Notes under the pieces: model-generated
The model's input: the letters and a program-made list of their open reading frames with translations, nothing else
Told to the model about the DNA's origin: nothing
Database searches by the model: none
Sequence record: OR234014.1
DNA from: Staphylococcus phage SAC
DNA: 64,000 nucleotides
Strand: one strand, 5' to 3'
Position numbers and translations under genes: made by a program
Shown here: piece by piece, positions 2,488 to 62,992 of the stretch
Numbering within the stretch: the first letter of the stretch is position 1
Layout: every line of letters starts with the position of its first letter

Positions 2488-2519
2488 GTTATTACCAATC
2501 CCTTCTTTAACTTAAATAC

Positions 2520-2548
2520 AGTATAGCATATCTAATCATAGTAGTCAA
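2520..2548 (-). promoter_or_regulatory. sigma-A-type promoter TTGACT-N17-TATACT upstream of the DNA polymerase gene
   Basis: Minus strand reads TTGACTactatgattagatatgcTATACT, ~30 nt upstream of the pol ATG. Confidence 0.5.
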
Positions 2549-2577
2549 TAAAAAAAAGAGGAACTTAATCCTCTTTG
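2548..2577 (-). terminator. rho-independent terminator after the HU-like gene
   Basis: Minus strand reads aagaggattaagttcctctt followed by a T9 run: a 7-bp GC-containing stem plus U-tract. Confidence 0.6.
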
Positions 2578-2867
2578 TTTAATACATCTATAACTTTATC
2601 TAATTCAGACAAAGGTTTAAACTTTAGTGCCTTTCTATTAGGTAAAGTGAAGTATGTTTTATTTAGTCCATCCCATGCTTTTTTACCCTTACGCTCTACT
2701 ACTTCTATTTGAAAGTACTTATGATTCTTTACCTTATCGTAATCTTCAAGTAGTAATTCAGAAATAGCTTTTGTTTCTGCTTCTAGTATCTCTTCTACGT
2801 CTTGGATATAGTACCCTGTACTCTCAGATATCTTTCTTGCTATATCTCTTCTATTTGCTGTACTCAC
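2565..2867 (-). CDS. HU/TF1-like type II DNA-binding protein
   Basis: 100 aa. N-terminal RRDIARKISESTGYYIQDVEEILEAETKAISE and the following beta-arm region resemble the HU/IHF/SPO1-TF1 fold pattern. Confidence 0.5.
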   Translation of the reverse strand: MSTANRRDIARKISESTGYYIQDVEEILEAETKAISELLLEDYDKVKNHKYFQIEVVERKGKKAWDGLNKTYFTLPNRKALKFKPLSELDKVIDVLNKED

Positions 2868-2875
2868 AAAATCAC

Positions 2876-3478
2876 CTAAATCTTAATCTTTCTTTGTCTT
2901 TTTAATTCAGTAAGTAGGTCTTCTATTATTTCATAATCTTTATTTTCTTTACTAGCAAGAATATAGATATACATTTTCCACACGGACAAAGAAACCCTTA
3001 ATTTGTCTGCAAAGTCAAGCGTATACCTAGGTTTTAGTTTATAAGCTTCTTTATCATACGTGTAGTACTTACCTTGTTTAGCGTCTATAGAACTAATACG
3101 AGGGAATGATAGATGAACCTCGTCTACATTCGTTTTAACATCGTATAAACTTCTAATAATATCGTAAGGATTGACGTAAGGAAATACAACTGAAATATCA
3201 ATAATGACTTTTGTTCCCATGAAACTCAAAGCTATATTATCCATATCTTTGTTACTAAACTTACTACGCATTCTATATACAACTGATGATTTAGGGTGAG
3301 CTGATAAATCTTTAAGCACATAGTAAGGAATTACTGAATCGGTATAGTATGTTACTTGTCCACCGTGCTTGCATATTTTTTCAATCAACTTATCATTGTT
3401 ATACTTCTCATTAAATAGCATGTAATGTTTATCATCTCTTAGTATATACCTAGTTGATTTATTAGCTAAGTTGTCCAT
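2876..3478 (-). CDS. hypothetical protein
   Basis: 200-aa ORF with no recognisable motifs. Confidence 0.4.
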   Translation of the reverse strand: MDNLANKSTRYILRDDKHYMLFNEKYNNDKLIEKICKHGGQVTYYTDSVIPYYVLKDLSAHPKSSVVYRMRSKFSNKDMDNIALSFMGTKVIIDISVVFPYVNPYDIIRSLYDVKTNVDEVHLSFPRISSIDAKQGKYYTYDKEAYKLKPRYTLDFADKLRVSLSVWKMYIYILASKENKDYEIIEDLLTELKRQRKIKI

Positions 3479-20881: not shown

Positions 20882-21125
20882 TTATGTTACGATTAGGTTC
20901 GTTACTCCTAACCTTCTTGTAGTCTCCTACAAAGTTCAGACTATATCTTAACCATATCTAATGAGACTTAGGTTCTCCCTGTTTCCAATCACTTGATTGT
21001 ACATAATAGTCGTTGCACCTTCCTAGTAATTTATTAAGCTTGGCTCATGATTGTCTCAAATGAGAGAGTTCCCATGAATTAAAGGAGTTACACTTATAAT
21101 ATTTCTACTATAAGGGGCAAAATTT
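20879..21125 (-). mobile_element. ORF-less mini group I intron in the helicase gene (~247 nt)
   Basis: Minus-strand R-like GGUGCAACGACUAUUAU (~21010) and S-like AUAUAGUCUGAAC (~20932). It sits between Walker A codons: exon 1 ends ...AATGCAGGT (U) and exon 2 starts AAAACAGAGGTT after a G. Confidence 0.65.
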
Positions 21126-21563
21126 ACCTGCATTGGTAGCTTGCTTACATATACCATTATAATTGACTAAACTATTAAACACAGCTTCATACTGATAGTC
21201 ACGTAATGTAATCTTACCTACGTTATTATCTAGTAGCTGTATTTCATCATCAATATCTTCTTCAGCTAAAAAGCTTTCAGATTTTTCATCAATAATTTCG
21301 TATTGAAAGTTATGTCTTGATTGTAACTCACCTAGTAATGTTATCATCTTAGGTAACAACCCACTAGGGAATTTGTTCTCAGCATAATCGTAGAAATCCA
21401 CATAACCATCCCACACACCTCGTTTAAAAGCTAAGCTATGTTGATAGCCCTCTTTCTTAGCTCCTAACGTTTTATGAACACGCTTAAGTATGATATCTTT
21501 AATATACCCGTCACTTTCATCAAAATCTACATATGTATATATATTCTGTTGTCTTAATTGCAT
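21108..21563 (-). CDS. SF2 DNA helicase, exon 1 (N-terminal ~146 aa)
   Basis: Q-motif region (RDYQYEAV) and the start of Walker A (GICKQATNAGK). The final FCPL is intron read-through. Confidence 0.7.
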   Translation of the reverse strand: MQLRQQNIYTYVDFDESDGYIKDIILKRVHKTLGAKKEGYQHSLAFKRGVWDGYVDFYDYAENKFPSGLLPKMITLLGELQSRHNFQYEIIDEKSESFLAEEDIDDEIQLLDNNVGKITLRDYQYEAVFNSLVNYNGICKQATNAGKFCPL

Positions 21564-42239: not shown

Positions 42240-42297
42240 TTTCTGTTTTTTATTATTTATACCATTTGTTAAAATATATAAGTATTATAATTGTATT

Positions 42298-43167
42298 CTA
42301 AAAATTAGATTCTAATAATTGTTTTAATTTTCTACCTATTGCTTTCCCTGTTTCATTAGGGTTTTTACTTTTAGGTACTTCTATGTTATATTTAAGATTC
42401 TTTGGTTGATGGTCGTTTTTTAGAGCATGTCTAGGCATAACATCACTGCCTCCACCTCCGCCACCTATGAACTTGTCTGAACCTTTCATAATACTGGCAA
42501 TCATAGTATCCCAATTACCTGCTGTTGCATATTCATGAACACCATTGTTGTGTCTCATATCGTGTAAGTTCTTTTGTCCTTTGTTGTAGAAGTTGTCTCT
42601 AATCCATTTAGCACCACCAACAATACCCAAACCATAGTTAAAACCATTATTAGGATTGTTATCAAAAGCACCTATACCGAACCAGTTACCTTTGTTAGGG
42701 TCTCCTCCTTTGGAAAGATTTGATGTTCCCCAGCCTGTCTCAACAGCACTATGTGCTACTAAATACCTTGGGTCAAGTCCTGACTCTTTACCTGCTTTCA
42801 TATAAAGCTCACCTAAACCACGCATTTTAGAATTACTAGGTGCTTGAGACTCAATCCATTTATTTAACATTTCGGCGTTTACACCTTTAGCAGTTTTACC
42901 TAAGTCATGCTTAGTTACGTCTTTATCCGTAAAGTTTTTACCATCAAGGTAGTCAAGTGTTCCTCCTGATGAACTGTCGTTAGAACTACTACCTTTATTT
43001 GTTAGGTTATCTGCTAAATGGTCTAAGAAATGTGAGTATACTGTTACATTTCCTTCTCTAGAATCATTATTCTTTTCTCTTTTTTCTTCTGCTTTTTGCC
43101 TGTCTTTACTTTGTGATTTATCATTAATACCATAAGTTAAAACATATAAACAATAGTATACTTTCAT
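42298..43167 (-). CDS. glucosaminidase-domain protein; probably the 3' exon of the TMP
   Basis: Contains YLVAHSAVETGWGTS. It lies immediately after the TMP intron. Its N-terminal YCLYVLTYGINDKSQSK is paralogous, in DNA as well, to the segment just upstream of gene 41415-42239. Confidence 0.5.
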   Translation of the reverse strand: MKVYYCLYVLTYGINDKSQSKDRQKAEEKREKNNDSREGNVTVYSHFLDHLADNLTNKGSSSNDSSSGGTLDYLDGKNFTDKDVTKHDLGKTAKGVNAEMLNKWIESQAPSNSKMRGLGELYMKAGKESGLDPRYLVAHSAVETGWGTSNLSKGGDPNKGNWFGIGAFDNNPNNGFNYGLGIVGGAKWIRDNFYNKGQKNLHDMRHNNGVHEYATAGNWDTMIASIMKGSDKFIGGGGGGSDVMPRHALKNDHQPKNLKYNIEVPKSKNPNETGKAIGRKLKQLLESNF

Positions 43168-43660
43168 ATATAACCTATCGTATTAGTTATGTATATTTAT
43201 TTAATAACAAGTTTACCTTACAAAATAAGAAAGGTTTATATGCAGAAGTAGAATACAAATTTTAATTATTTATATATTTTAACAATGTTTAAATATACAC
43301 GCTACTGTATATTCTCTAGTTATTTCTAGACACTACCTTTCGGTACGTGCGCAGACTATTTGTTATCCCTATTAGTATAGGGTGAGTATTTTTCTTCCAC
43401 CAATCACTTGTGGCTTTACTTCCGTCACCTATACGGAATAGTCGTTGAACGTGTTCCGTAGACCTTTCAGGTCTTTAGGACTTTCGATGCTATACACCCA
43501 TTGTACTTCTCCTTAGGATTTAACCTTAGAGTATCTAACTAATTTTTTCTGATTTCTCAACATTCAAGCCTAGTCTTTCGACTTACTTTGTAGTTTAGTT
43601 AGCTTTAGTAGTTTCATAGCAGTTAACACTCGGTACTTACAGATTGCTCTATAAGCAAGG
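43168..43660 (-). mobile_element. group I intron at the 3' end of the TMP ORF (ORF-less)
   Basis: Minus-strand R GUUCAACGACUAUUC (~43450) and S AACAAAUAGUCUGCGC (~43365), plus a P8-like hairpin ccac...gtgg. ~85-90% identical to the cores at 55860-56190 and 61680-61996. The TMP stop codon lies inside the conserved intron motif GTTAAC. Confidence 0.65.
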
Positions 43661-46616
43661 CAATTAGTATATAACTAATTATGTTACCTTTTTTATTTTT
43701 CACTGTCTCGTCTAATTTAGAAGGGTTATCTGGTGTGAAGAAATCTGTTATGCCACCCCATAGTTTACCTACAGGAGAGTCTTGGAATTTATTCTTACCA
43801 TCTTTATCTCCATTAGACCATAATTTCCAACCATCACTTGTCATAGAACCTTCCGCTGTTTTCGTAGCATAATCTCTTAAGCCATCTCCATAGCCTAAAT
43901 TTAACGGGTCTATAATACTTCCTATAGTATTACCAAATTTAGAAGAAGCTTCTTTAGTATCTCCTTGTATTAAAGAACTACCTATATCAAACGCCGATAG
44001 ACCTGCACCAATCCAACCTAGCTTACTTGTAAGACCACCTAGTTTACCAAGACCTCCTGCGTTAGCAGTAGGTGCTTGTGACATAAAACCTAAGTCAGAA
44101 CCTTTACCGCTAAATTTACCTTTAGCTTTACCAAAAGCTCCCTTACCTTTGTTCCATGCACCTTTACCTAGGTCTTTGGTTCTTCCCATATATTCACCAA
44201 AAGTAAAATCTCTTTTTCCAAAGGTATCAAATAAGGTTTTACCCATGCCTTTAGCAGTTTGTCCTGCTCCTTTTGCTTGGTCTTTAAATGGTCGGTCTCC
44301 ACCTCTAGGGTTATCACCTAGTATAGTGTCAGCTAAGTTTTTAAGTCCTCCAAAGCGTCCACCACCGTTAGGATTACCACCAGGTTTACCACCACCAGTC
44401 TTACCTGTTGAACCTCCTTTACGGTTATTAAACCAATCTTTTAGTCCTTTTTGACCTTTACCTAATAAAGAACCACCAGCCATCATGGCAGTAGATTTAG
44501 CTAAAGATGCTACAAAGGCAAGTACTGCTCCTGAAGCTAGGTATAAAGGAGCTGGCAAGCTTGCCATAGCACTATGAACATCTCTAATAGGTTGAGCTAA
44601 GTCATAAATATCCTCAGCTTTATCATCTGTCTTAGCTTTGTTATGGTCATTTCTACCTGCTTTAGACTCGGAATACTTATCCTTATTTTTATCTCCTGCT
44701 TTAGAGCCCTCTTGTTCCATGCTCTTAGCTTTACTAGCTAACTCTTCTTTAGATAGTTTACCTGAGGCGTAAAGATTGTACAACTCATCTGTTTGCTCTT
44801 GTGTTAAGTTAGCTCCCATGCTTTCAAAGCCTTTTTTAGCTATGGCTTGTTTTTCTTTTGTTGTACTTCCTATATTATTAGCTTGGTCAAATATATTAAC
44901 TAAGTTATTAGGGTCTGATATACCTTTATCCATTTGTGCTTGTAAGTCATGCATACCTTCTAATCCTTGGTACTTAGTACCCCATCCCATTGCTAATCTA
45001 GTATAAGAATTACCCATACCATTTTTAATACCTTGGTCAATACTACTTAAGGCTTGAGCTCCTTGTGCACCTTGTAGACCTTTACTACCTGTACCCGCTA
45101 CTTGAGCTTGTAGAGAAGTAAGATTAGACATTTCTCCTTTAGATAATGTTCTACCTTGTCCTGACTGCTCGGCAATAGTACTTAAAGCTCTTAATTGCTC
45201 GTCTTGTCTACCAACCATATCAGATTCACGTATACCACCTAAGAAAGCATCTTGCATAGCTTTCATATTATCTGAGTTTACGCCACCTGTATGCATAAGT
45301 TGTGACATGGATTGCTGATAAGCTTCTTGGTCTTGTATACCTAATGAACGACCACCTACAGCTAACTGTTTAGCTCCTTTATACGTATCTGCATCGCTTT
45401 TATGTCCTATAGAACTTTCATATGACGTAGCCATTTTTAGCATGTCAGTTGAATTATAACCAAGCTTATTATCTATTGACAAATCTCCATATGTATTTCT
45501 TACTGCGTCTATATCCATATTATCTGAATTTTGTCCTAATGATGTTACCATAGGTCTATTTGCCTCGGATAAGGAGGCACCTTTCATATACATACCACCT
45601 GCAAGAGCAGTTACTGCCATAGTAGCATGTGCACCAATAGATGGTAATCTATCTTGGAACAATTTACCCATTGTTCCTCGTTGCTGTTCTATCTCACGCT
45701 GAGCAAACTGTTTTTTAGCACTATTTTTATAGTAGTTGATTGACTTGTCTAATTCAGCACCTGTTTTTCTATAAACTTCAGAAAGCTTTTCACTTTCATC
45801 AATCATCATTTTAATAGAAGCTGATTGTTTTTTATAATCCTCAGAACTTATTTCACCACGAGCTCTTTTGCCTACTAAATCTTGTTGTTGTTGTCTATAA
45901 CCTCTATATCTATCTTGGTTTTCTTTTATTCTTCTATTGTTAGCTTCTCGTTGCTTTTCAAAAGTGTCTACTTTACCTAATTCAGAACGTACTCTAGCAC
46001 CTTGGTCATAGGACATTCTATTAGAGCCTTCAGACCTAGATATATGACCTCTAACCATATTACGATTAGCTCTTAGTTGCTTTGTGTACTCCTTAGCTGA
46101 ACTGGCATCTTTTACTAATTTATTATACTCTTCTGTAACTTGGTTCAGTGTTTTCATTTCTTTTATTCTGTTTGTTATATCTGAGTCTGAACCAATCTTT
46201 TGAGATGCTACTTTCTCTAGTTCTGTTTGTGTATTATTTAGTGTCTTATTAAGTTTACTATATACTTTCTCTACTTCAGGGTCAGGAGCTATACCCTTTG
46301 TAATATTATCTGTTTGTATGTCATTTAAAGCTTTCTTTAGGTCGTTTATATTCTTAGTTACATTCTGTGTAGAACTAATAGCCTCATCCATAGCTTTTGG
46401 TGATATTAAAGACTTATCACTTTGTTTATCCATAATGTTTTGTACAGATTTTACTTCTTTTGCTATTACTTTTAATTTCTCTAAGAAGTTTGTTAATGGT
46501 GCATCTATGTTTTTAGACTCTAACGCATCCATGTACATCTCTATAGCTTTTAAACTTTGTTCTAAGCTAGAACTATCACCAGTCAAGACCAACCTATAAT
46601 CGTCATTCATTGCCAA
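43623..46616 (-). CDS. tail tape measure protein, 5' exon (or complete gene)
   Basis: 997 aa. Long coiled-coil N-terminal half, Gly-rich repeats, and a hydrophobic segment (PAPLYLASGAVLAFVASL). The last ~8 residues are intron-encoded. Confidence 0.7.
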   Translation of the reverse strand: MAMNDDYRLVLTGDSSSLEQSLKAIEMYMDALESKNIDAPLTNFLEKLKVIAKEVKSVQNIMDKQSDKSLISPKAMDEAISSTQNVTKNINDLKKALNDIQTDNITKGIAPDPEVEKVYSKLNKTLNNTQTELEKVASQKIGSDSDITNRIKEMKTLNQVTEEYNKLVKDASSAKEYTKQLRANRNMVRGHISRSEGSNRMSYDQGARVRSELGKVDTFEKQREANNRRIKENQDRYRGYRQQQQDLVGKRARGEISSEDYKKQSASIKMMIDESEKLSEVYRKTGAELDKSINYYKNSAKKQFAQREIEQQRGTMGKLFQDRLPSIGAHATMAVTALAGGMYMKGASLSEANRPMVTSLGQNSDNMDIDAVRNTYGDLSIDNKLGYNSTDMLKMATSYESSIGHKSDADTYKGAKQLAVGGRSLGIQDQEAYQQSMSQLMHTGGVNSDNMKAMQDAFLGGIRESDMVGRQDEQLRALSTIAEQSGQGRTLSKGEMSNLTSLQAQVAGTGSKGLQGAQGAQALSSIDQGIKNGMGNSYTRLAMGWGTKYQGLEGMHDLQAQMDKGISDPNNLVNIFDQANNIGSTTKEKQAIAKKGFESMGANLTQEQTDELYNLYASGKLSKEELASKAKSMEQEGSKAGDKNKDKYSESKAGRNDHNKAKTDDKAEDIYDLAQPIRDVHSAMASLPAPLYLASGAVLAFVASLAKSTAMMAGGSLLGKGQKGLKDWFNNRKGGSTGKTGGGKPGGNPNGGGRFGGLKNLADTILGDNPRGGDRPFKDQAKGAGQTAKGMGKTLFDTFGKRDFTFGEYMGRTKDLGKGAWNKGKGAFGKAKGKFSGKGSDLGFMSQAPTANAGGLGKLGGLTSKLGWIGAGLSAFDIGSSLIQGDTKEASSKFGNTIGSIIDPLNLGYGDGLRDYATKTAEGSMTSDGWKLWSNGDKDGKNKFQDSPVGKLWGGITDFFTPDNPSKLDETVKNKKGNIISYILIALLIEQSVSTEC

Positions 46617-48726: not shown

Positions 48727-48781
48727 TAGTACACCTCCTTTTATTTTTAATTATAATACAGTACTTCTAATAAAACAAGTA

Positions 48782-48815
48782 TAAAAAAAGACCTAACTTT
48801 TATTGTTAGGTCTTA
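48782..48815 (-). terminator. strong rho-independent terminator at the end of the tail tube gene
   Basis: Minus strand reads agacctaacaataaaagttaggtct (perfect 9-bp stem) followed by T7. Confidence 0.7.
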
Positions 48816-48821
48816 ATACGA

Positions 48822-49189
48822 AATTTAAGTTCTAGCCTTATCTGATGCTGTCCTCTATACCCTATCTTTCGATATATTTTAAAGGGAGTAGACTATACCA
48901 TAATCTTAATGTGTAACTAAGACTCACTTATTATAGTCGTTGAAGCTTCCCACTCTCGTAGGCTTGCCTGCGTATCATCTATTTTACTGTACTTAGGGTT
49001 TAACCTTATACTATACTAGATATTTTTTCTGATTTCTCAACATTCAAGCTTACCCTTTCAGGTTACTTTGTAGTTATCTAGTCTTTAAGACTTTCACGCA
49101 ATTTAAAGTGTTTTCTATGCTTGTCACCAAACATAGCCTCTATTAGTTAAAGGTAGCTAAACTCAATTTCTTCTGTTACAATTTCATTT
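48822..49189 (-). mobile_element. group I intron (tail tube gene, downstream copy of a tandem pair)
   Basis: Minus-strand R GCUUCAACGACUAUAAU (~48940) and S GGUAUAGUCUACUC (~48895). Its P1-P6 region is related to the other introns but P8 is shorter. Confidence 0.6.
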
Positions 49190-49535
49190 GTCTGCCAAGT
49201 CTCGTTGTAGTTGTTTGCTGAACCGTTTATACCCTATCTTTCGATATATTTTAAAGGGACTAGACTATACCATAATCTTAATATGTAACTAAGACTTACC
49301 TATTATAGTCGTTGAACCTTCTCCATTTTACAGGAGCTTGGATGCTAATTACCAATTATGTAGTACTTAGGATTTAACCTTATACCATCTAACTAATTTT
49401 TTCTGATTTCTCAACATTCAAGCCTAGTCTTTCGACTTACTTTGTAGTTTAGTTAGCTTTACGGTGTTCTAGCAATTTAAGGTATTATTCAATGCACATC
49501 ACTGTACAAGGGGTCTATTTAGTTAAACCATGGTA
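49190..49535 (-). mobile_element. group I intron (tail tube gene, upstream copy of a tandem pair)
   Basis: Minus-strand R GGUUCAACGACUAUAAU (~49315) and S GGUAUAGUCUAGUC (~49275). Its 5' half is nearly identical to the TMP, IStron and portal intron 5' halves. Confidence 0.6.
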
Positions 49536-49853
49536 ACTAATAATAACTTGTTTCGTTAAGTTATCTACTACTAAGATATCAATAATATCTTTCTTAAGAA
49601 TTTCTTCACCAAGTGAAGCATATCCTAAATCTGCGAAGTTTTCTTTTTTCATACGTAAACGTTCTAGTGTAATTGTACCAGCATATTTTAAGTAAACATG
49701 CTCTTGTGGCATAATACTACCAATTTCGTATACACCAGTAGTTCCGTATTCACGTTGACCTTTAGCAGATTGTGCTCTTCCAACTGGTTTACCTTTTACC
49801 ATTAGCATAACGGTATTACCAGTATGGACAGACTGCTTAGCCTCTGAAGCCAT
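49515..49853 (-). CDS. tail tube protein, 5' exon (112 of ~140 aa)
   Basis: Immediately downstream of the sheath gene. The ORF ends inside the intron. Remaining short exons must lie between and after the two introns, with the last exon ending just before the terminator at ~48820. Confidence 0.55.
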   Translation of the reverse strand: MASEAKQSVHTGNTVMLMVKGKPVGRAQSAKGQREYGTTGVYEIGSIMPQEHVYLKYAGTITLERLRMKKENFADLGYASLGEEILKKDIIDILVVDNLTKQVIISYHGLTK

Positions 49854-53380: not shown

Positions 53381-54255
53381 TATAGCATTCCCCCAAAGAA
53401 ACCACCTGAATGATTATCTTTAGATTCTTTTTTAGGGTCTTCTACCTGTATCTCTAAGTCCTCTTCTATACCATCATTAACTTTAAATGGCTCAGGTAGT
53501 ACAATAACGTCTTCCCTTTTTAATAATAGCTTCTGAGGTAAATTTTCAAACTTTGTATTAGGTTGATTAAATTTAGTATATTGGTATCGACTTTCTTTTA
53601 ATATATCTGATACTACATATCTAAGTACCATTAAAATATTTAAGGATATAGTTTTGTTTTCAAACTTAGCGTCCATGAATAATCTATTGTTCTCTATATT
53701 ATAGTCATCTTCATAAACATTACCATCGTTAGATGTAATAAAGGTTACTTCTTTGACATCATAGTATAGAGGTATACCTTTTTGTATACGCTCTTTAGTA
53801 ACATGGTATATAAGTTGTTGTGGCATCAATACTTCAGGAACAGTAAACCTGTCTCTATAAGATACTCGTTTTTCTAATTGTGTAGTTCCTATAGCTGTAC
53901 CAGTATCTAAAATTCCTATATCTAAATTGTTAGTTCCTTTTTCTTGAGATTGGATAGCCATTATTGTCTCTTTAGGAGGTAAATAGGCAATACCTTTACC
54001 GTGACACCTAGGACAATCTACTCTAGGATGTCCTGTGTCAGGGTTAAGGCAAGGACAAAAGTAAGCCCTTTCCCACAGTACCTTTATACCTCTATCATTG
54101 ACAAATCTTCTCATATCCTTAGTGTCAAACTCTAGTCTAGCTGTAGATAACTTTTGTTCTTGTTCATCTGCTTGTGTTGTAGATGTATACATAGTAGACT
54201 TATTAATTATATTAGAAGTATTATTATTAGTACCTATCATAAAAGGTTTTTGCAT
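53380..54255 (-). CDS. virion structural protein with CxxC...CxxC zinc ribbon
   Basis: 291 aa containing CPCLNPDTGHPRVDCPRCHGKG. It has its own RBS (AGGAAGGAGATATTTAATG). Confidence 0.4.
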   Translation of the reverse strand: MQKPFMIGTNNNTSNIINKSTMYTSTTQADEQEQKLSTARLEFDTKDMRRFVNDRGIKVLWERAYFCPCLNPDTGHPRVDCPRCHGKGIAYLPPKETIMAIQSQEKGTNNLDIGILDTGTAIGTTQLEKRVSYRDRFTVPEVLMPQQLIYHVTKERIQKGIPLYYDVKEVTFITSNDGNVYEDDYNIENNRLFMDAKFENKTISLNILMVLRYVVSDILKESRYQYTKFNQPNTKFENLPQKLLLKREDVIVLPEPFKVNDGIEEDLEIQVEDPKKESKDNHSGGFFGGML

Positions 54256-54475
54256 TTAATATCTCCTTCCTACTATATGCCTATCATATTGGAGCCAAAG
54301 TAAGATTTTAACCCAGCTAATAGCTCTTTTATATCTTCATTAATTTGTAGTATTTGAGCACTTGCTCCACCATACATAGCAGATTGTGTAGTACCTATTG
54401 TTTCTGTAATACCATCTACATCTAGAGTTTTGTTTGCTATTCCTGCACCGATAATGAGATTACCATATGTTAATT

Positions 54476-56192
54476 AAATTAACTTCCTTTGTAAAATAAA
54501 AGGCATTATACATTCGGGTTATGGAACCCTACTAAAAGCAAACATATTATTGGTTTTGTTCTTTTAACCATTGGGAATTATGGTAGTTTTTTAAATTAAT
54601 ACTTGCATTTATATCCCTATCTTCTTCATATCCACAAGCATTACATTTAAAGACTTTATCACCTAACTGTAATTTTAAAGCATTTCTTTTTCTTTCTCCG
54701 CAATTACTGCATATTTGTGATGATGGATAATAAGTACTAGCTACTGTAAATTTTATACCTCTATCTTCACATTTATATTGTAATTGCTGTCTAATCATAT
54801 AGAAATTAGAAAACTGTATTTGTTTTCTTTTTTGTCCTGTATATCCTTTGTCTTTTATTAAATCACGAACTCTTATATCCTCTACAATAATCTCTTTAGG
54901 ATACTTTTCAACAATTTCTTTTGTTATTTCATGTACATGATTTTTAAGGATATTTGACATTTTTCTATAAACTTTAGCTATCTTATTTTCTAGCTTTAAA
55001 ACATTATTTGTTTTGGTGTGGTTAATATCATATTTATTACTTAATCTTTTCTGTAGGTCAGCTAATTTTTTTTCTAACCTTTTCATTTTCTTGGAATAAA
55101 TAATATTACCATATATTTTTCTGTTAGAACAAATTACGTGTTTTTTACCACTACCTAAGTCTATACCTATGACTTCGTTAGTATTATCCTTTTCTTTCTT
55201 GTATTGATTATCTACTTCAATTGAAAAAGATATATACCAATATTTACCATCATAGTAACATTTAGGGTTTAAAGGTTTAATGCTTTCATTCTCTAGTACT
55301 GATTTATTATTTTTATATGTACCATTAGAAATTCTTAAGTAACCTAATTTTTCAACTTTAACATGTTTTTCTTTGTTAAAGTGCATTCGGTCATATCTAA
55401 TAGGAAACCTCTTAGATTCCCTTTTCTTAGACTTAAATTTAGGTTTTCTAATTTCATGATTATGATATTTTATTAATGTTTCTCTTAAGTCATCTATTTT
55501 ACCAACTAAGGTTTTTCTAGATACTTCATTTAAGAAACTATACTTATCATCATTCTTTATTTCTTTTAGTATAGAAATCATATTTTTATGGTCTATATAT
55601 TTACCGTTATCGAGAGCTTTCCAATATCTTTCTAGCATATAATTATAAATAAATCTAGAATGGTTTACATGTTTCCACATTAACTCTTCTTGTTCTTGGG
55701 TAGGGTTTACTTTTAGTGTTATACCTCTATAAAATTTATTTTCCGTTTTTTTCATTTACTTTCACCACCTTATATATTATATCTATAATATAACATATAC
55801 TTGGGGTAATTTCAATAGGAAGTTTTCATTTAATTAACATTGTTTCCTTACTTACGCTACTAAATAAGTCTAGGTCAATTCCTAGCACTCCTTTTCAAGA
55901 CGTGTGCAGACTATTTGTTATCCCTATTAGTATAGGGTAAAGATTTTTCTTCTCCCAATCACTTGGAGCTTTACTTCTGTCGTCTATACAGAATAGTCGT
56001 TGAACGTATTCCTTATCTATTGACTTAGGACTTTCGATGCTAAACTTCCATTGCTCTTCTCCTTAGGATTTAACCTTAGAGTATCTAACTAATTTTTTCT
56101 GATTTCTCAACATTCAAGCTTAGTCTTTCGACTTACTTTGTAGTTTAGTTAGTTTTAGGATTTCTTAGCAGTTAACCTTTGAAAATGTGCAA
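54476..56192 (-). mobile_element. IStron-like chimera: group I intron core plus IS605-family tnpB plus hairpin 3' module
   Basis: 5' core (55860-56190) has R GUUCAACGACUAUUCUG and S AACAAAUAGUCUGCAC. A P1 pairing is plausible between exon UGUGU and intron GCACA. The TnpB ORF lies in the 3' part, followed by the hairpin module GGGUUCCAUAACCC. Confidence 0.65.
54547..55755 (-). CDS. tnpB: TnpB (IS605 OrfB-family RuvC-like nuclease)
   Basis: 402 aa. RuvC-I (VIGIDLGSGKK), RuvC-II (IIVEDIRV), zinc finger (CSNCGERK...CNACGYEE) and RuvC-III (DRDINASINL), with the typical N-terminal YRGITLKVNPTQEQEE...RFIYNY. Confidence 0.85.
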   Translation of the reverse strand: MKKTENKFYRGITLKVNPTQEQEELMWKHVNHSRFIYNYMLERYWKALDNGKYIDHKNMISILKEIKNDDKYSFLNEVSRKTLVGKIDDLRETLIKYHNHEIRKPKFKSKKRESKRFPIRYDRMHFNKEKHVKVEKLGYLRISNGTYKNNKSVLENESIKPLNPKCYYDGKYWYISFSIEVDNQYKKEKDNTNEVIGIDLGSGKKHVICSNRKIYGNIIYSKKMKRLEKKLADLQKRLSNKYDINHTKTNNVLKLENKIAKVYRKMSNILKNHVHEITKEIVEKYPKEIIVEDIRVRDLIKDKGYTGQKRKQIQFSNFYMIRQQLQYKCEDRGIKFTVASTYYPSSQICSNCGERKRNALKLQLGDKVFKCNACGYEEDRDINASINLKNYHNSQWLKEQNQ

Positions 56193-56193
56193 C

Positions 56194-56943
56194 TTACGCT
56201 ACACACAGGGTAATATCATCGTAACCCCATATTTGGTAAATTTCTTTTAGTGCATATTTAATAACTAATTGCTCTAATTCTGGTGGTACTTCCCATGGTT
56301 TAGTTCTACCTGCTCTTTGTCTAGGTAACATACCACTAATATAATCTAATGTAATCATTTGAGGTGCAAAAGTTGCTCTACTTGGCGGGTACATTCCTGC
56401 TAATTGAGGATATCCACTGAATACAGCATCGTAAGACATAGATTGACCCGTCTGCATTAAAGCTGTAGGGAATAACTGTACGTGACCTGCTAAATGCTCC
56501 ACTTTCCACCAGTTAGCTGGATAATCATACATAGGTCTACCATTAAATTGTAGTTGTAAATTTTCTACCTGTAATATAGGTTTTTTATATGCGTGTACAA
56601 ACATATAACTATTAAATTCTGTTTCGTAGTAATCTCTCATTTCATGTTGTAAGTCAGGTAAAATAGATATATCTAAAGCTCTTTCCGCTTTACCTATAGC
56701 TCTTTCTAATATATGATTATAAAAATCATCACCCATAGGTTGTCCTGTATCGGGGTTTTGTACTGTTATACCAAACATATAGGCTTTCACAGCATCTGCT
56801 GACCAACCATAATCAGCTAGAGTAATATTATCTAATTCTCTTTTATCTATATGTTTTGGGTTTCCAGATGGGTGATAAGGATACTCATATGATAAAGAGC
56901 TTTCGTAAGGGTCTAAACTACCACCAAACATACTGTTTACCAT
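56194..56943 (-). CDS. virion structural protein, 5' exon
   Basis: 249 aa. The ORF terminates at the intron boundary (stop ~18 nt from the conserved GTTAAC, as in the portal gene), implying continuation in a short 3' exon beyond the IStron. Confidence 0.45.
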   Translation of the reverse strand: MVNSMFGGSLDPYESSLSYEYPYHPSGNPKHIDKRELDNITLADYGWSADAVKAYMFGITVQNPDTGQPMGDDFYNHILERAIGKAERALDISILPDLQHEMRDYYETEFNSYMFVHAYKKPILQVENLQLQFNGRPMYDYPANWWKVEHLAGHVQLFPTALMQTGQSMSYDAVFSGYPQLAGMYPPSRATFAPQMITLDYISGMLPRQRAGRTKPWEVPPELEQLVIKYALKEIYQIWGYDDITLCVA

Positions 56944-57289: not shown

Positions 57290-58681
57290 CTATTTTAATG
57301 CAAGGTAACTTACGTTTTTAATACGAGCCCATTTTTTAGGAGCACGTAACGCTAAAGCACCATACCATAATACTGCAAATGTAATACTAGCATTAATTTG
57401 AGCTAATGGTAATTTCATCATTGGTAATAACTCGAACAAGTGTAATACTTGTGGTGACATTTCACCAACGAATACGTCTGCTGTTTCAGGTAATGTTTCG
57501 TTTTTATCAACGAATACTAAAGAACCATCTTCTTGTGCATCTTTAAGTGCTACACGTTTAATTAAGTAGTACATACCTGTTTCTTTACCTTGACGGTAAA
57601 TAGATACGAATTGTGGGCTTTGTTGGTACATAGAGTTAACAGTAATCTTTAATTCTACTCCATCTGTAGCATTTGTTACTGTAGCAACTTGTGCTTCTGA
57701 TGGTGCTGATTCAGCTTCATCAGAGTGAACAACTACTTTATAAGATAAACCTGCACGGTCTTCTTCTTTAGTAAATTTACCTTTTTGGTTTGTTTTTACT
57801 TCAGCTTTTACTGTAGCTGGTTGTGGTGCATTTGGTTGTGGGATTAAAGTTTCATCTAAGATTAATTCATTTTCCATTACAGTAGAACCATGTAATCTAA
57901 TGAATCCACGAGATGAATAGAATCCGTTAACACTGAAACCAGTATTTACATTACCACTATTGTCTTGCATTAATTGCATTTGTCGACCTAAGATATTAGT
58001 AACAAAGTCAGAATGTACACCGATAGGCATGTAAGCATCTGTAGCTGTACCAAAACCTTTACCGATTTTAACTGAAGCTAAGTTTAATAATTTCTCATCT
58101 AAGTGAGCACCTTTAGCGTCGATAACGTTATCAGCATCAATTAATTTAGCTAGTCCATCAAATTCTAGTCCTTCTCCACCAACTTCAGAAGTTAATGAAG
58201 CATCACCATAGAATGAAGCCCATTCAATTGTTTTAGCAACAACTGAGATAGCATCTTCAGTCAAGATTTGACCAGGGTCAGCAATGTTATTTACTAAACT
58301 AGATGCCAATGACATATTTTTAGTATCAGAAATGTATTTCATTGTAACGGTCTTTTGACGGATATTAGGGTCTGAAACTGACGCTACTCCGATTTCACGT
58401 ACAAAACGAGAATGACCTACTTTACCGTGACGTAAGAAAACATCATATTTAATTACTGTTGATTCAGCTGGTCTACGTGCAACATCACGGTAAAATACTA
58501 AATCATTATTTCCCCATGTAAGCATAGTGATTTGGTCGTTTAAAATTTCACGACGTAAAGCACCTGCATCCACTTGTGTTTCAGGAGTGATACCATATCC
58601 AGTTTGGAAGGATTTCGATAATTTTTCTTGTAATTCATCAGCAACTGCATGTTGCTTTTTTGAAAGTTCATTTTGGTTCAT
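57290..58681 (-). CDS. major capsid protein
   Basis: 463 aa with a strong RBS (AAAGGTGATATATATAAATG). Position after protease/scaffold and size match the K/Twort-like MCP. The fold cannot be verified by eye. Confidence 0.65.
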   Translation of the reverse strand: MNQNELSKKQHAVADELQEKLSKSFQTGYGITPETQVDAGALRREILNDQITMLTWGNNDLVFYRDVARRPAESTVIKYDVFLRHGKVGHSRFVREIGVASVSDPNIRQKTVTMKYISDTKNMSLASSLVNNIADPGQILTEDAISVVAKTIEWASFYGDASLTSEVGGEGLEFDGLAKLIDADNVIDAKGAHLDEKLLNLASVKIGKGFGTATDAYMPIGVHSDFVTNILGRQMQLMQDNSGNVNTGFSVNGFYSSRGFIRLHGSTVMENELILDETLIPQPNAPQPATVKAEVKTNQKGKFTKEEDRAGLSYKVVVHSDEAESAPSEAQVATVTNATDGVELKITVNSMYQQSPQFVSIYRQGKETGMYYLIKRVALKDAQEDGSLVFVDKNETLPETADVFVGEMSPQVLHLFELLPMMKLPLAQINASITFAVLWYGALALRAPKKWARIKNVSYLALK

Positions 58682-61378: not shown

Positions 61379-61392
61379 GGGGACTTCGTAAT

Positions 61393-61996
61393 CTAAAATT
61401 TATAAAAAATTTTATTCCTTTTTCAACGTATCCCTTTTTGAGTACCTTCATCATTACTAGTTACTTTTATATACTCTACTGAGGTTTGTATGATACTCTA
61501 AAGGCGTTAATTCGGGTTTACGGAACCCTACATATCATGTTTACTGTTTTATTTAGTTAAAACATGATATGGTTTAAGTATATCATAGAAAAGATTACTT
61601 GTCAACTAGTAAAGGAATAATTTTTTTTATAAACCTTAGTTTTATTTATTTACAAACGCTACTTTGTAAACCTGTGTCATTTCACATGCTCTACCTTTCA
61701 GTACGAGACTAGACTATTTGTTATCCCTATTGTGTAGGGTAAGGATTTTTCTTCTCCCAATAGCTTGGAGCTTTACTCCCGTCTTGTAACGGGATAGTCG
61801 TTGAACGTATTCCATAGACCTTTCAGTTCTTTAGGACTTTCGATGCTAAACAACCATTGTTCTTCGTCTTAGGATTTAACCTTAACGTATCTCAATATCT
61901 TTTTTCTACTTTCGTAACATTCAAGCCTACCCTTTCGGGTTACTTTGTAGTGTATTGAGCTTTAGGTGTTCTTAGCAGTTAACCCTTCATCTATAC
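61393..61996 (-). mobile_element. group I intron in the portal gene (ORF-less) with IStron-like 3' hairpin module
   Basis: Core (61680-61996) has R GUUCAACGACUAUCCCG and S AACAAAUAGUCUAGUC. It shows compensatory P8 changes relative to the TMP copy. The 3' region contains GGGUUCCGUAAACCCGAAUUAACGCCUUU at 61495-61527, homologous to the module after tnpB. Confidence 0.65.
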
Positions 61997-61999
61997 AAA

Positions 62000-62992
62000 T
62001 TACTTTATATAGAGGCAAATTTGCCAGCTACCGTTTATACCTGAAAAACTAGATTTCCATTCTCTTTTAAAGTTCTCTAACGCATGTTGAGATTGCTGTT
62101 GGTCAGCTCTAATCTGTAAGATACCTCTTGTTGTTCCACCGTGACTGAAGAACCTATCGTTAAAACTTTCAGTATTATTATAAGCTATAAATTCTTTCAT
62201 TGCAATCTCTACTTCTGACAATCCATACCCACTAGAATTTAAGTCTGACCTAGGGTTCCTAATACCCATGACAAGTTCTCTGCTTGTAAAACTAGCTACT
62301 ACTTGCTTATCTATGACCTGTACAAAGCGATTGCCACCTTTAATTATCTTACCGTTTTTATCAGTAGCATAAAAAATGGTGCTAGGGTCTACTGCAATAA
62401 ACTTCTCCATCTTAGTTTTGTTTTTAGGACTAAAAACTTTTTCGAAGTTAACTTGGTCGTACGTGTAAGTATCTCTTACTATTTTTTTACAAAACTCTTG
62501 GAATGAATCCCTGTCTATATCTTTATCTGTACCTGTATTAAGAATAAATTCTTCAATACGTTTCATCTGTTCTTTTTCTTTAATACCAGGTGTAGCGTCT
62601 AAGTCTTTTAATTTAACTTCAAAACCTACGCCTTTTTCTGAATATCTGGCAGGTTTACAGTATGTAGATACTTGGTTAGCTCTTGTAATAATTATAGCAT
62701 TTAGTATAGAGTTATTACCAAATTTCTTTAACACTTCATGTAAGTTATGAGCATTCCTCATATAGCTCTTCTTATCTCTATAATCAGGATTTGTATCCAT
62801 CATTTCTAAAAATGGTTCTGCATAAGCTTGCTGTTTACCATACAAAGATTTAGTAATTTCTTGCATCTCTTTTGTATCTTGTTCTATTTGTCTAATGTTA
62901 GCTTGTATTCCGTCATCTATAGGAACCATAAGGTCTTCAGTGTCTTCTTTATACATACTACCTAACCTTAGACTTTTAAATAAATCAGGCAA
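62000..62992 (-). CDS. portal protein, 5' exon
   Basis: 330 aa. Combined with the 3' exon it gives ~575 aa, in line with the ~560-aa portal proteins of related phages. Confidence 0.6.
   Translation of the reverse strand: MPDLFKSLRLGSMYKEDTEDLMVPIDDGIQANIRQIEQDTKEMQEITKSLYGKQQAYAEPFLEMMDTNPDYRDKKSYMRNAHNLHEVLKKFGNNSILNAIIITRANQVSTYCKPARYSEKGVGFEVKLKDLDATPGIKEKEQMKRIEEFILNTGTDKDIDRDSFQEFCKKIVRDTYTYDQVNFEKVFSPKNKTKMEKFIAVDPSTIFYATDKNGKIIKGGNRFVQVIDKQVVASFTSRELVMGIRNPRSDLNSSGYGLSEVEIAMKEFIAYNNTESFNDRFFSHGGTTRGILQIRADQQQSQHALENFKREWKSSFSGINGSWQICLYIK

Follow-up and report, generated by a model that had tools for sequence, protein, structure and literature searches.

The DNA considered here, called the window below, is a stretch of 64,000 nt from Staphylococcus phage SAC (OR234014.1), and all coordinates follow its numbering. 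On its minus strand a neck/head-completion gene is interrupted by an element that carries a group I ribozyme core, a tnpB gene, and a short hairpin module (Table 1). Positions 54200..56300 are 100% identical to the reverse strand of Staphylococcus phage StAP1 (KX532239, Silviavirus, Herelleviridae), which bears out the virulent staphylococcal myovirus host proposed in an earlier note on this DNA; loci labelled StAP1 below are the window copies. About 20 further phage genomes contain the same 2.1 kb with 87–99.8% identity. According to the comparisons described below, the element is probably a non-autonomous group B (IS607-type) IStron whose ends are the splice sites, and TnpB-guided homing is proposed for it.

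The boundaries of the element are placed by uninterrupted homologues, namely Kayvirus phiIPLA-RODI and intron-less Silviavirus alleles. According to these, exon 1 ends with G56225, the element extends from T56224 to G54463 (...AACATATGG), and exon 2 starts with T54462, giving the junction ...CAAATATGGGG/TAATCTCATT... (a slash marks a junction throughout); the run of G at this point leaves a one-base ambiguity that does not affect the product. In a tblastn search, the C-terminus of the 249-aa open reading frame (ORF) at 56943..56194, joined to the downstream coding stretch, is contiguous in several hundred Herelleviridae genomes, where it is 8 residues shorter. The phiIPLA-RODI protein (AJA42042, 302 aa) reads ...KEIYQVWGNLIIGAGIANK... 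across the junction; StAP1 has ...KEIYQIWG, then YDDITLCVA and a stop in part one, and ...GNLIIGAGIANK in part two. Removal of the element in silico leaves 909 nt encoding 302 aa, collinear with the 302-aa Kayvirus protein, restores the conserved ...IWG/NLIIGAG, and yields a full-length match to phrog_772 (E=4.6e-140). This family is labelled "tail fiber protein" in PHROGs, and individual records name a neck, head-completion, or head-tail connector protein. The gene is also uninterrupted in four Silviavirus genomes, Koomba-kaat_1, St1.CM, MR003, and VL10 (93–97.5% DNA identity), which corroborate the junction at single-base resolution; at the empty site, Koomba-kaat_1, MR003, and VL10 have the sequence ATATGGGG/(A)AATCTC. 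A 432-nt ORF-less version and a 524-nt version bearing a remnant of tnpB have ends identical to those of the full element.

The earlier note had placed the element between 56192 and 54476, with the 249-aa ORF stopping exactly at the intron boundary. Since the uninterrupted alleles fix the junction, the end of this ORF lies inside the intron: it runs 28 nt, or 9 codons, past the boundary and stops at an in-frame TAA (56196..56194) in P2. The splice sites as first given were off by ~30 nt (5') and 13 nt (3'). The distance from this stop to GTTAAC is indeed similar to that in the portal intron (16 vs 17 nt), as had been pointed out, but it marks no splice site. Splicing after GCGU at the stop codon, or at UGUGU/AGCG (a P2-like hairpin), is excluded by the uninterrupted homologue that is shorter by 8 aa. 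Splicing at the boundaries given above would yield the ligated junction ...AUAUGGGG/UAAUCUC (in its longer form CAAAUAUGGGG/UAAUCUCAUU) and a protein reading through ...EIYQIWGNLIIGAGIANK.... Database records annotate the 249-aa ORF and a separate small ORF, as would suit a gene that is truly split, with no splicing, a mature 249-aa protein, and 62 downstream codons that are untranslated or made separately. This is scarcely credible, since exon 2 has neither an in-frame start codon nor a Shine-Dalgarno sequence, and it is conserved and collinear with a C-terminus that is uninterrupted in several hundred Herelleviridae. Element removal, moreover, restores the frame and IWGNLIIGAG exactly, and the fold of the intervening RNA is kept by covariation.

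The 5' 400 nt of the element form a Twort-type group I core. The R (GUUCAACGACUAUUC, ~56004..55990) and S (AACAAAUAGUCUG, ~55919..55907) elements, which the earlier note had picked out as forming P7, contain the pairing of GACUA (55998..55994) with UAGUC (55913..55909), invariant in an alignment of 13 cores, and the P8 hairpin that it also named is present between them. This alignment includes the three window paralogues, the qdsa001 tail lysin, the Romulus portal, the DH2 neck gene, and S2G3 sbcD, as well as cores from a Twort-like phage, a Sepunavirus tail lysin, P68, Alsa_1, an Enterococcus phage, and phage c-st. The RNAalifold structure together with the P7 pseudoknot has 79 pairs, with 97% of cells paired and compensatory changes in 49 pairs across the 13 cores. 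None of 500 shuffles equals the real alignment, and structures slid by 1–3 columns reach 33–46% pairing. The topology corresponds to subgroup IA2: a long-range P3 encloses P4-P6, P7.1 and P7.2 are situated between P7 and P3', and P8, P9, and P9.x follow; P2 is read from the sequence as GUGUGU:GCACAU. The covariation is decisive for the ribozyme fold.

Regarding the Rfam group I intron model (RF00028), by which the earlier note would have judged the core, the window copy gives no match at the gathering score or at E<=10. For the ORF-less Romulus allele the model reports 22.4 bits (E=0.0024), its gathering threshold being 50 bits. The published c-st IStron, too, has no match at E<=0.01. The model is thus insensitive to this subclass, so that its failure is not informative and is no valid ground for rejecting the intron. 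A classical group I intron elsewhere in the window (20916..21135, minus strand), unrelated to the element, scores 91 bits with RF00028 (E=5e-22).

The pairing between the exon and the internal guide, formed by the last four exon bases and the first intron U, also covaries: GGGGU:GCCCU in qdsa001, GCGGU:GCCGU in the Romulus portal, AGGGU:GCCCU in S2G3, AAGGU:GCCUU in the tape-measure protein (TMP) gene, and GAGGU:GCCUC in c-st. Beyond the core there is an AU-rich stem, whose 5' arm (GUUAAUUAAAUGAAAACUUCCU, 55817..55838, minus strand) pairs with 54488..54469 over ~20 bp with a duplex free energy of −20.7 kcal/mol. The two arms covary in the qdsa001, Romulus portal, TMP, and c-st copies and directly adjoin each other in the ORF-less Romulus neck allele; in the sister elements and c-st this stem is 33–35 bp long (−30 to −39 kcal/mol). 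At the DNA level, the core matches a sequence beside CST113 in phage c-st with 76% over 114 nt.

As for the nuclease gene, the complete TnpB with intact RuvC residues and zinc finger that the earlier note had described is confirmed. The protein matches Pfam HTH_OrfB_IS605, OrfB_IS605, and Cas12f1-like_TNB, and it retains the D199/E292/D379 triad and two CxxC motifs (349-352 and 371-374). The best solved relative is 8iaz_A (E=2.8e-42), which we take to be the TnpB of ISFba1 (IS607), followed by the next natural TnpB structure, 8h1j/8bf8 (1.2e-19); the triad aligns with ISFba1 D194, E290, and D371. The comparison with IStron TnpBs suggested in the earlier note gives 39% identity to CST113, the OrfB of the c-st IStron (E=8e-66), and one database record annotates the ORF as ISBth15-like. 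An intact 402-aa orthologue occupies the same gene and site in DH2, a phage of S. pseudintermedius. Between the two, synonymous divergence (dS) is 0.51 and nonsynonymous divergence (dN) 0.061, and the dN/dS of 0.12, uniform across both halves of the gene, indicates that TnpB is under purifying selection. The tnpB gene is a mosaic: over the first 600 nt it shares 98% identity with the tnpB in the qdsa001 tail lysin (L003 3439..4645), and over the remainder 64%, with the breakpoint directly after the RuvC-I motif GIDLG, which points to recent gene conversion among IStron paralogues. In the qdsa001 tnpB itself there is an N-terminal frameshift within an A-run. According to tblastn, TnpB homologues occur in 586 phage records, 94 of them from Staphylococcus phages.

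The promoter and Shine-Dalgarno sequence listed for tnpB are consensus matches only; the promoter has 10 of 12 matching positions and an extended −10 element. Between 56224 and 54463 tnpB is the sole ORF of at least 40 aa, and neither TnpA (ORF A) nor a classical homing-endonuclease intron ORF is found in the element. Having no ORF A, the element is non-autonomous, like CsISt1 and CbISt1/4 (Table 1 of Tourasse 2014, PMC4227781). For the family's spread to at least five genes, a host or co-resident IS607 TnpA, reverse splicing, and illegitimate homing are possibilities.

Between the tnpB stop and exon 2 the earlier note had seen a short hairpin module, and three hairpins are indeed predicted there; the fold alone is not significant (z = −0.71), so the weight is carried by comparative evidence only. 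Searches for RAGATH-18 (RF03064) over 3.4 kb and over 211 nt around the neck-gene element give no match at E<=10. In the sisters it scores 72.2 bits after the qdsa001 tnpB, 60.8 after CST113, and 60.6 in the StAP1 portal intron. Their alignment reveals an internal deletion, by which the GCCUUU-(RAGATH-18 interior)-AAAGGAA of the sisters becomes GCCUUU-UAUUUUAC-AAAGGAA in the neck element. The nexus loop and the 3' end covary as pairing partners in six elements: CCAUA:UAUGG in the neck gene (StAP1, DH2, and KSAP7), CCGUAA:UUACGG in the qdsa001 tail lysin, CCGUA:UACGG in S2G3 sbcD, CCAUGA:UCAUGG in the Romulus portal, CGUAA:UUACG in the StAP1 portal, and CGUUG:CAACG in c-st. The 84-nt 3' untranslated region (UTR) differs from that of DH2 at 4 positions, compared with a dS of 0.51 for tnpB and 83% identity for the intron core. 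Since the ORF-less intron does without this region, yet the UTR is conserved, it is read as a constrained minimal omega-RNA, which may or may not load TnpB without RAGATH-18. Of the 3'-exon guide envisaged in the earlier note, the nexus hairpin and pseudoknot are thus kept, but the absence of RAGATH-18 in cis makes the guide function less certain. Because 54488..54469 serves either the closing stem of the ribozyme or SL2/SL3, splicing and guide formation should compete, by analogy with CboIStron.

Table 1. Positions in the window of the interrupted gene, the parts of the element, and two of its sisters (SL, stem-loop; reRNA, right-end element RNA; TAM, target-adjacent motif)
Feature	Position	Strand	Details
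Exon 1, neck/head-completion gene (phrog_772)	56225..56943	-	ends ...CAAATATGGGG; final bases TGGGG are the predicted TAM
Whole element (probable IStron)	56224..54463	-	1762 nt; begins UUACGAUG..., ends ...AACAUAUGG
P1/P2 region	56181..56232	-	exon AUAUGGGG and first intron U against internal guide ACCCUGUGU; core ACCCU 56211..56207
Group I ribozyme core	55839..56180	-	P3, P4-P6, P7, P7.1, P7.2, P8, P9, P9.x; IA2, Twort type
Sigma-70-like promoter, then Shine-Dalgarno	55787..55815	-	TTGAAA-17-(TG)TATATT, then AAGGTGGTGA; consensus scan
tnpB, IS607-type RNA-guided nuclease (by homology)	54547..55755	-	402 aa
Predicted minimal omega/reRNA scaffold	54463..54546	-	three hairpins and pseudoknot partner
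SL1 nexus	54529..54516	-	GGGUUCCAUAACCC; fold
SL2	54503..54486	-	CCUUU-UAUUUUAC-AAAGG; outer stem of the deleted RAGATH-18
SL3	54483..54469	-	GUUAAUUUAAUUAAC; palindromic 3' stem arm
Pseudoknot partner	54467..54463	-	UAUGG; pairs with nexus loop CCAUA 54524..54520
Predicted guide	54443..54462	-	UAAUCUCAUUAUCGGUGCAG; exon 2 positions +1 to +20; analogy with CboIStron and ISFba1
Exon 2, neck gene	54273..54462	-	190 nt; stop TAG 54275..54273
Portal-gene sister	61387..62022	-	core 78% identical, tnpB deleted; RAGATH-18 61504..61415
Tape-measure-gene sister, ORF-less	43130..43686	-	557 nt; AAAAGG/UAAC...UUAUGG, ends ...UUUUAACUUAUGG

The portal intron of the window retains, besides RAGATH-18, a promoter-like site TTGACA-N17-TATGATATACT (~61600..61575), the last tnpB codons (..HVLTK and stop), and a nexus hairpin, and over its 3' part it shares 94% identity with the omega-RNA region of the IStron in the qdsa001 tail lysin; judging from these features it is an orphan guide scaffold. 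It follows ...GCTGGC rather than GG, with the junction inferred from the intron-less Romulus site. The Romulus portal gene has a TnpB-bearing IStron ~110 nt upstream of the StAP1 portal intron site.

Such a scaffold makes it conceivable, although unlikely in our judgement, that the neck-gene ribozyme splices while its own omega-RNA is dead without RAGATH-18, TnpB acting in trans with orphan scaffolds such as that at 61504..61415 or having a non-cleavage role, e.g., the modulation of splicing. The lack of an RF03064 match in the neck element would agree with this, as would a portal intron with full RAGATH-18, promoter, and nexus and no tnpB. Over its N-terminal 200 codons TnpB is, furthermore, 98% identical to the qdsa001 TnpB, whose omega-RNA corresponds to the portal scaffold (94%), TnpB is under purifying selection, and PK1, which involves RAGATH-18, is essential in ISFba1. 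The neck nexus and its partner, however, have changed together to CCAUA:UAUGG, compared with CGUAA:UUACG in the portal intron, and a dead scaffold would not keep this pairing. The 84-nt UTR is also far more conserved than synonymous sites although dispensable for the intron, and the portal intron follows TGGC, not a GG-ending TAM. A distributed RNA-guided homing network in Silviavirus, with one trans-acting TnpB serving both its own 84-nt scaffold and the RAGATH-18 scaffold of the portal intron, is a tentative and rather doubtful extension of the proposed homing. If it were true, several introns would drive into, or exclude, co-infecting lytic phages, and synonymous clusters in empty alleles would be the footprint of a guide/target arms race. 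It would also be the first natural case of non-restorative TnpB homing between virulent phages, together with a naturally miniaturised IS607 scaffold.

Four allelic states are observed at the neck-gene site. The empty state is found in Koomba-kaat_1, St1.CM, MR003, and VL10; these four intron-less genomes exclude an intron that is fixed in Silviavirus. The 432-nt ORF-less intron with adjoining stem arms occurs in Romulus, Remus, and others, and the 524-nt intron with the last tnpB codons and the scaffold in KSAP7, KSAP11, phiRNIID, and SSP49, with qdsa001-type genomes appearing similar. The 1762-nt element with tnpB is carried by StAP1, Stau2, EW and CIFT phages, and others. This is the pattern expected of a homing cycle of invasion, nuclease decay, and loss. 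In KSAP7 (L002 ~1990..2085) the 92-nt remnant consists of the last ~11 tnpB codons and the scaffold, and it is closer to DH2 than to StAP1, which implies that TnpB was lost by internal deletion from a diverged copy.

Since the Romulus allele equals the element minus exactly the 1328-nt cassette between the stem arms (55816..54489), and alleles with and without TnpB coexist, the mobile unit might be this tnpB cassette only, with a guide starting at the cassette boundary (AGGAAGUUAAUU...) and Romulus-type ORF-less introns as targets. We regard this as very improbable: the CUUCCU 5' of the cassette boundary is no GG-type TAM, and, according to the covarying pseudoknot, the scaffold extends to the last five bases of the intron, 21 nt downstream of the boundary. 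In published IS607 IStrons, moreover, the guide begins at the 3' splice site, and remnants of the KSAP7 type indicate that TnpB-less forms can come from internal deletion.

The empty alleles also differ from StAP1 in an uneven way. Between Koomba-kaat_1 and spliced StAP1 there are 9 differences in 840 nt. Three of these are located more than 150 nt upstream, and six fall at exon 2 positions +1, +10, +13, +16, +22, and +31, all six being synonymous; no change is found in the 150 nt upstream of the site and no other in the 420 nt downstream. MR003 has the same six changes, and VL10 deviates at five of the first 20 nt, +1 among them, with TGGGG unchanged in all three genomes. The Kayvirus allele has the TAM and mismatches at 5 of the 20 guide positions. 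This synonymous cluster coincides with the predicted guide stretch 54462..54443, for which the predicted target is TGGGG+TAATCTCATTATCGGTGCAG. It may represent escape from RNA-guided cleavage, or it may be a tract that is necessarily co-converted when the cut lies downstream of the insertion site; both readings fit a nuclease whose target is wholly 3' of that site, and neither amounts to proof.

Among known systems, the combination of a group I intron and TnpB noted earlier inside a virion gene matches published group B, IS607-type IStrons. According to Tourasse 2014 (PMC4227781), group B IStrons insert after AGGG, TGGG, or GAGG with an exon-final G and an element-initial U, end with CGG at 3', and have an inverted-repeat stem of 15–34 bp with >80% AU, an ISBth15-like ORF B, and an IS607-type ORF A. 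Autonomous members carry the serine recombinase TnpA, and many copies are delta-ORF A or ORF B only (PMC4227781). The neck element shares with BcISt1 of B. cereus and CbISt3/CbISt4 of C. botulinum phages c-st and D-1873 the IA2 ribozyme at 5' and the insertion sequence module at 3', the GG-ending site, the G/U junction, the AU-rich stem, the ISBth15-like ORF B, and the existence of ORF-less derivatives. Its site reads ...ATATGGGG/TTACG..., and those of the sisters TGGGG/T, AGGG/T, AAGG/T, GCGG/T, and GAGG/T. The 3' terminus is UAUGG in the neck gene, UACGG in qdsa001 and S2G3, CAUGG in the Romulus portal, and AACGG in c-st, so that all of them keep the terminal GG, and the base before it changes in step with the nexus loop. 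Unlike group B, the neck element has a virulent Herelleviridae host, virion-gene targets, no trace of ORF A, UGG instead of CGG, a first intron U opposite A in P1, and an internally deleted RAGATH-18. The earlier note had taken IStrons to be mainly chromosomal; they were already known in phages (c-st and D-1873), although these are not virulent myoviruses.

CboIStron is similar in being of the IS607 family, with TGGG as TAM and with transposon ends that are the splice sites; its omega-RNA has three stem-loops and a nexus pseudoknot, implying competition between splicing and guide formation, as here. In that system the nexus pseudoknot overlaps nucleotides required for use of the 3' splice site (Zedaveinyte et al. 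2023, bioRxiv 10.1101/2023.11.20.567912). CboIStron differs in having TnpA(S) and in its plasmid or prophage location; its transposition, cleavage, and splicing have been reconstituted in experiments, whereas ours are deduced from sequence, and its scaffold is much longer than the 84 nt that follow the stop in the neck element. The CboIStron study reportedly appeared in 2024.

The reRNA of IS607 elements has, in this order, a hairpin in the 5' flank, the 73-nt RAGATH-18 motif, a 3' flank, and the guide; ISFba1 cuts 16–22 nt from the TAM, is sensitive to single mismatches, and requires the RAGATH-18-containing PK1 (Ren et al. 2024, PMC11061315). Its RuvC triad and zinc finger align with those of the neck TnpB, its 5' TAM contains GG (AGGAG or GAGGG), and its reRNA likewise starts just past the tnpB stop and has the guide at the 3' end. 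ISFba1, however, has a scaffold of ~184 nt (5' flank, 73-nt RAGATH-18, and 64-nt 3' flank) and no intron, and of these parts the neck element has kept no more than the hairpin of the 5' flank, the RAGATH-18 stem base, and 21 nt of 3' flank.

Twort orf142 and the homing-endonuclease introns of staphylococcal myoviruses were reportedly described by Landthaler and Shub in 1999 and by Lavigne and Vandersteegen in 2013. These introns belong to the same ribozyme family, the neck element having 75–86% DNA identity to the intron copies beside the tail-tube gene of the window and to Twort-like phages, and they share the location in essential late genes and an ORF looped out of a peripheral stem. Unlike them, the neck element encodes an RNA-guided TnpB in place of an HNH, GIY-YIG, or LAGLIDADG enzyme, and it has a 5' splice site after G instead of U and IS607-like ends. 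IStrons including the C. botulinum phage copies, TnpB homing, the conflict between splicing and guide formation, and RAGATH-18 reRNAs were already known. In the open literature, with Vandersteegen 2013 and Lavigne & Vandersteegen 2013 outside the search, we found no paper that names the staphylococcal phage elements IStrons. The literature on staphylococcal myoviruses lists such genes as "transposase" or gives RAGATH-18 matches without interpretation (e.g., PMC13346280), and one paper paraphrases earlier work on the portal gene as "transposase ... projected to exhibit splicing behaviour".

Taken together, an IA2 ribozyme whose peripheral 3' stem encloses a promoter-tnpB-scaffold cassette could operate as follows. 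The late neck-gene transcript would fold into the ribozyme, the stem 55838..55817/54488..54469 bringing the 3' end to the core, and splicing after G56225 and G54463 would restore the 302-aa protein and thereby render the insertion harmless. TnpB would be expressed from its own promoter. In an alternative 3' fold the nexus would pair with the last five intron bases, with SL2 and SL3 formed locally, to give an omega-RNA whose guide would be the first 16–20 nt of exon 2. The TnpB-RNA complex would cut TGGGG directly followed by exon 2, an arrangement expected only in element-free alleles of co-infecting phages, and recombinational repair from an IStron-bearing genome would copy the element in, which amounts to homing or, alternatively, to the exclusion of a competitor. 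Splicing, the formation of an omega-RNA without RAGATH-18, the TAM, cleavage, and homing are each proposed from comparisons with related elements.

Several observations weigh against this interpretation. RF00028 stays under its gathering score, the first intron U faces A, not G, in P1 of the neck-gene copy, and splicing of the element is a prediction from sequence comparison. RAGATH-18, reported to co-occur with IS607 TnpBs, is absent, and the cis RNA may not load TnpB. Having no TnpA, the element alone cannot account for transposition to new sites. The synonymous cluster could be the result of co-conversion by any endonuclease, or of recombination, rather than of escape from TnpB, and since the known empty alleles have 4–5 guide mismatches, present-day homing may be blocked.

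Regarding its consequences, the interpretation changes the annotation of dozens of Silviavirus genomes that are therapeutic candidates, in which tnpB is labelled "transposase" and the neck gene is represented by a truncated ORF of 249 aa and an orphan. They would instead have one spliced 302-aa gene with a non-autonomous IStron, which bears on phage-therapy screens that flag transposases. Homing of IS605/IS607 elements into co-infecting phage or plasmid DNA has so far been mainly theoretical (2026 review, PMC13565253). With four allelic states at one site in culturable lytic phages that share a host, it becomes directly testable. The 3' region would have to alternate between ribozyme stem and guide scaffold, and the loss of RAGATH-18, with the nexus pseudoknot kept, amounts to a natural experiment on the parts that a scaffold requires. 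The RAGATH-less scaffold and the four-state polymorphism with its target-side footprint are the features worth following.

Paralogues of the element occur in the portal, tape-measure, and tail-tube genes of the window, in the tail lysin gene of qdsa001, and in sbcD of S2G3. Their termini are TGGGG/UAAC and ...UUACGG in the qdsa001 tail lysin (stem of 33 bp), AGGG/U and ...AUACGG in S2G3 sbcD, and AAGG/UAAC and ...UUAUGG in the StAP1 tape-measure gene; c-st has GAGG/UAAC and ...CAACGG (stem of 34 bp). The Romulus portal and qdsa001 tail lysin contain the same element (the first 22 nt, TAACAATAAGTTACAATTAAAT, are identical) after GGCGG and TGGGG, respectively, and the internal guide is altered to fit each exon. 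Complete TnpB-bearing IStrons are located in the gene of an SbcD-like nuclease in S2G3 (L012 2473..4355), in the qdsa001 tail lysin (L003 2931..4816), and in the Romulus portal gene (L010 ~1165..3116); RAGATH-18 is detected or recognisable by eye in these three.

As for the tape-measure gene of the window, the exon following the ORF-less sister encodes 289 aa with a glucosaminidase domain, which the Kayvirus TMP lacks. This exon ends 35 nt before a second right-end-like motif, TTTTAACAAATGG (42274..42262), after which the homology to TMP resumes.

The gene order around the element on the minus strand is portal, prohead protease, scaffold-like protein, major capsid protein (57290..58681), a 77-aa ORF, the 249-aa ORF, tnpB, a short unannotated coding stretch, and further virion genes. 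For related Silviavirus genomes, a HEARO RNA (the guide scaffold of IscB-type systems) and a second RAGATH-18 locus have been reported (PMC13346280), both from a part of the genome that the window does not include.

Downstream of a 112-aa "tail tube" ORF (49853..49515), at ~49514..48750 (minus strand), there are two small group I cores in tandem, each of ~330 nt, split by a short exon encoding ...SANNYNETWQTNEIVTEEIEFSYL. Judging by size and position, this split gene presumably corresponds to the multi-intron orf142 of Twort. The same tandem arrangement is found in Kayvirus phiIPLA-RODI and downstream of the tail-tube genes of P68 and an Enterococcus phage, and the tail-tube gene is probably under-annotated in many records.

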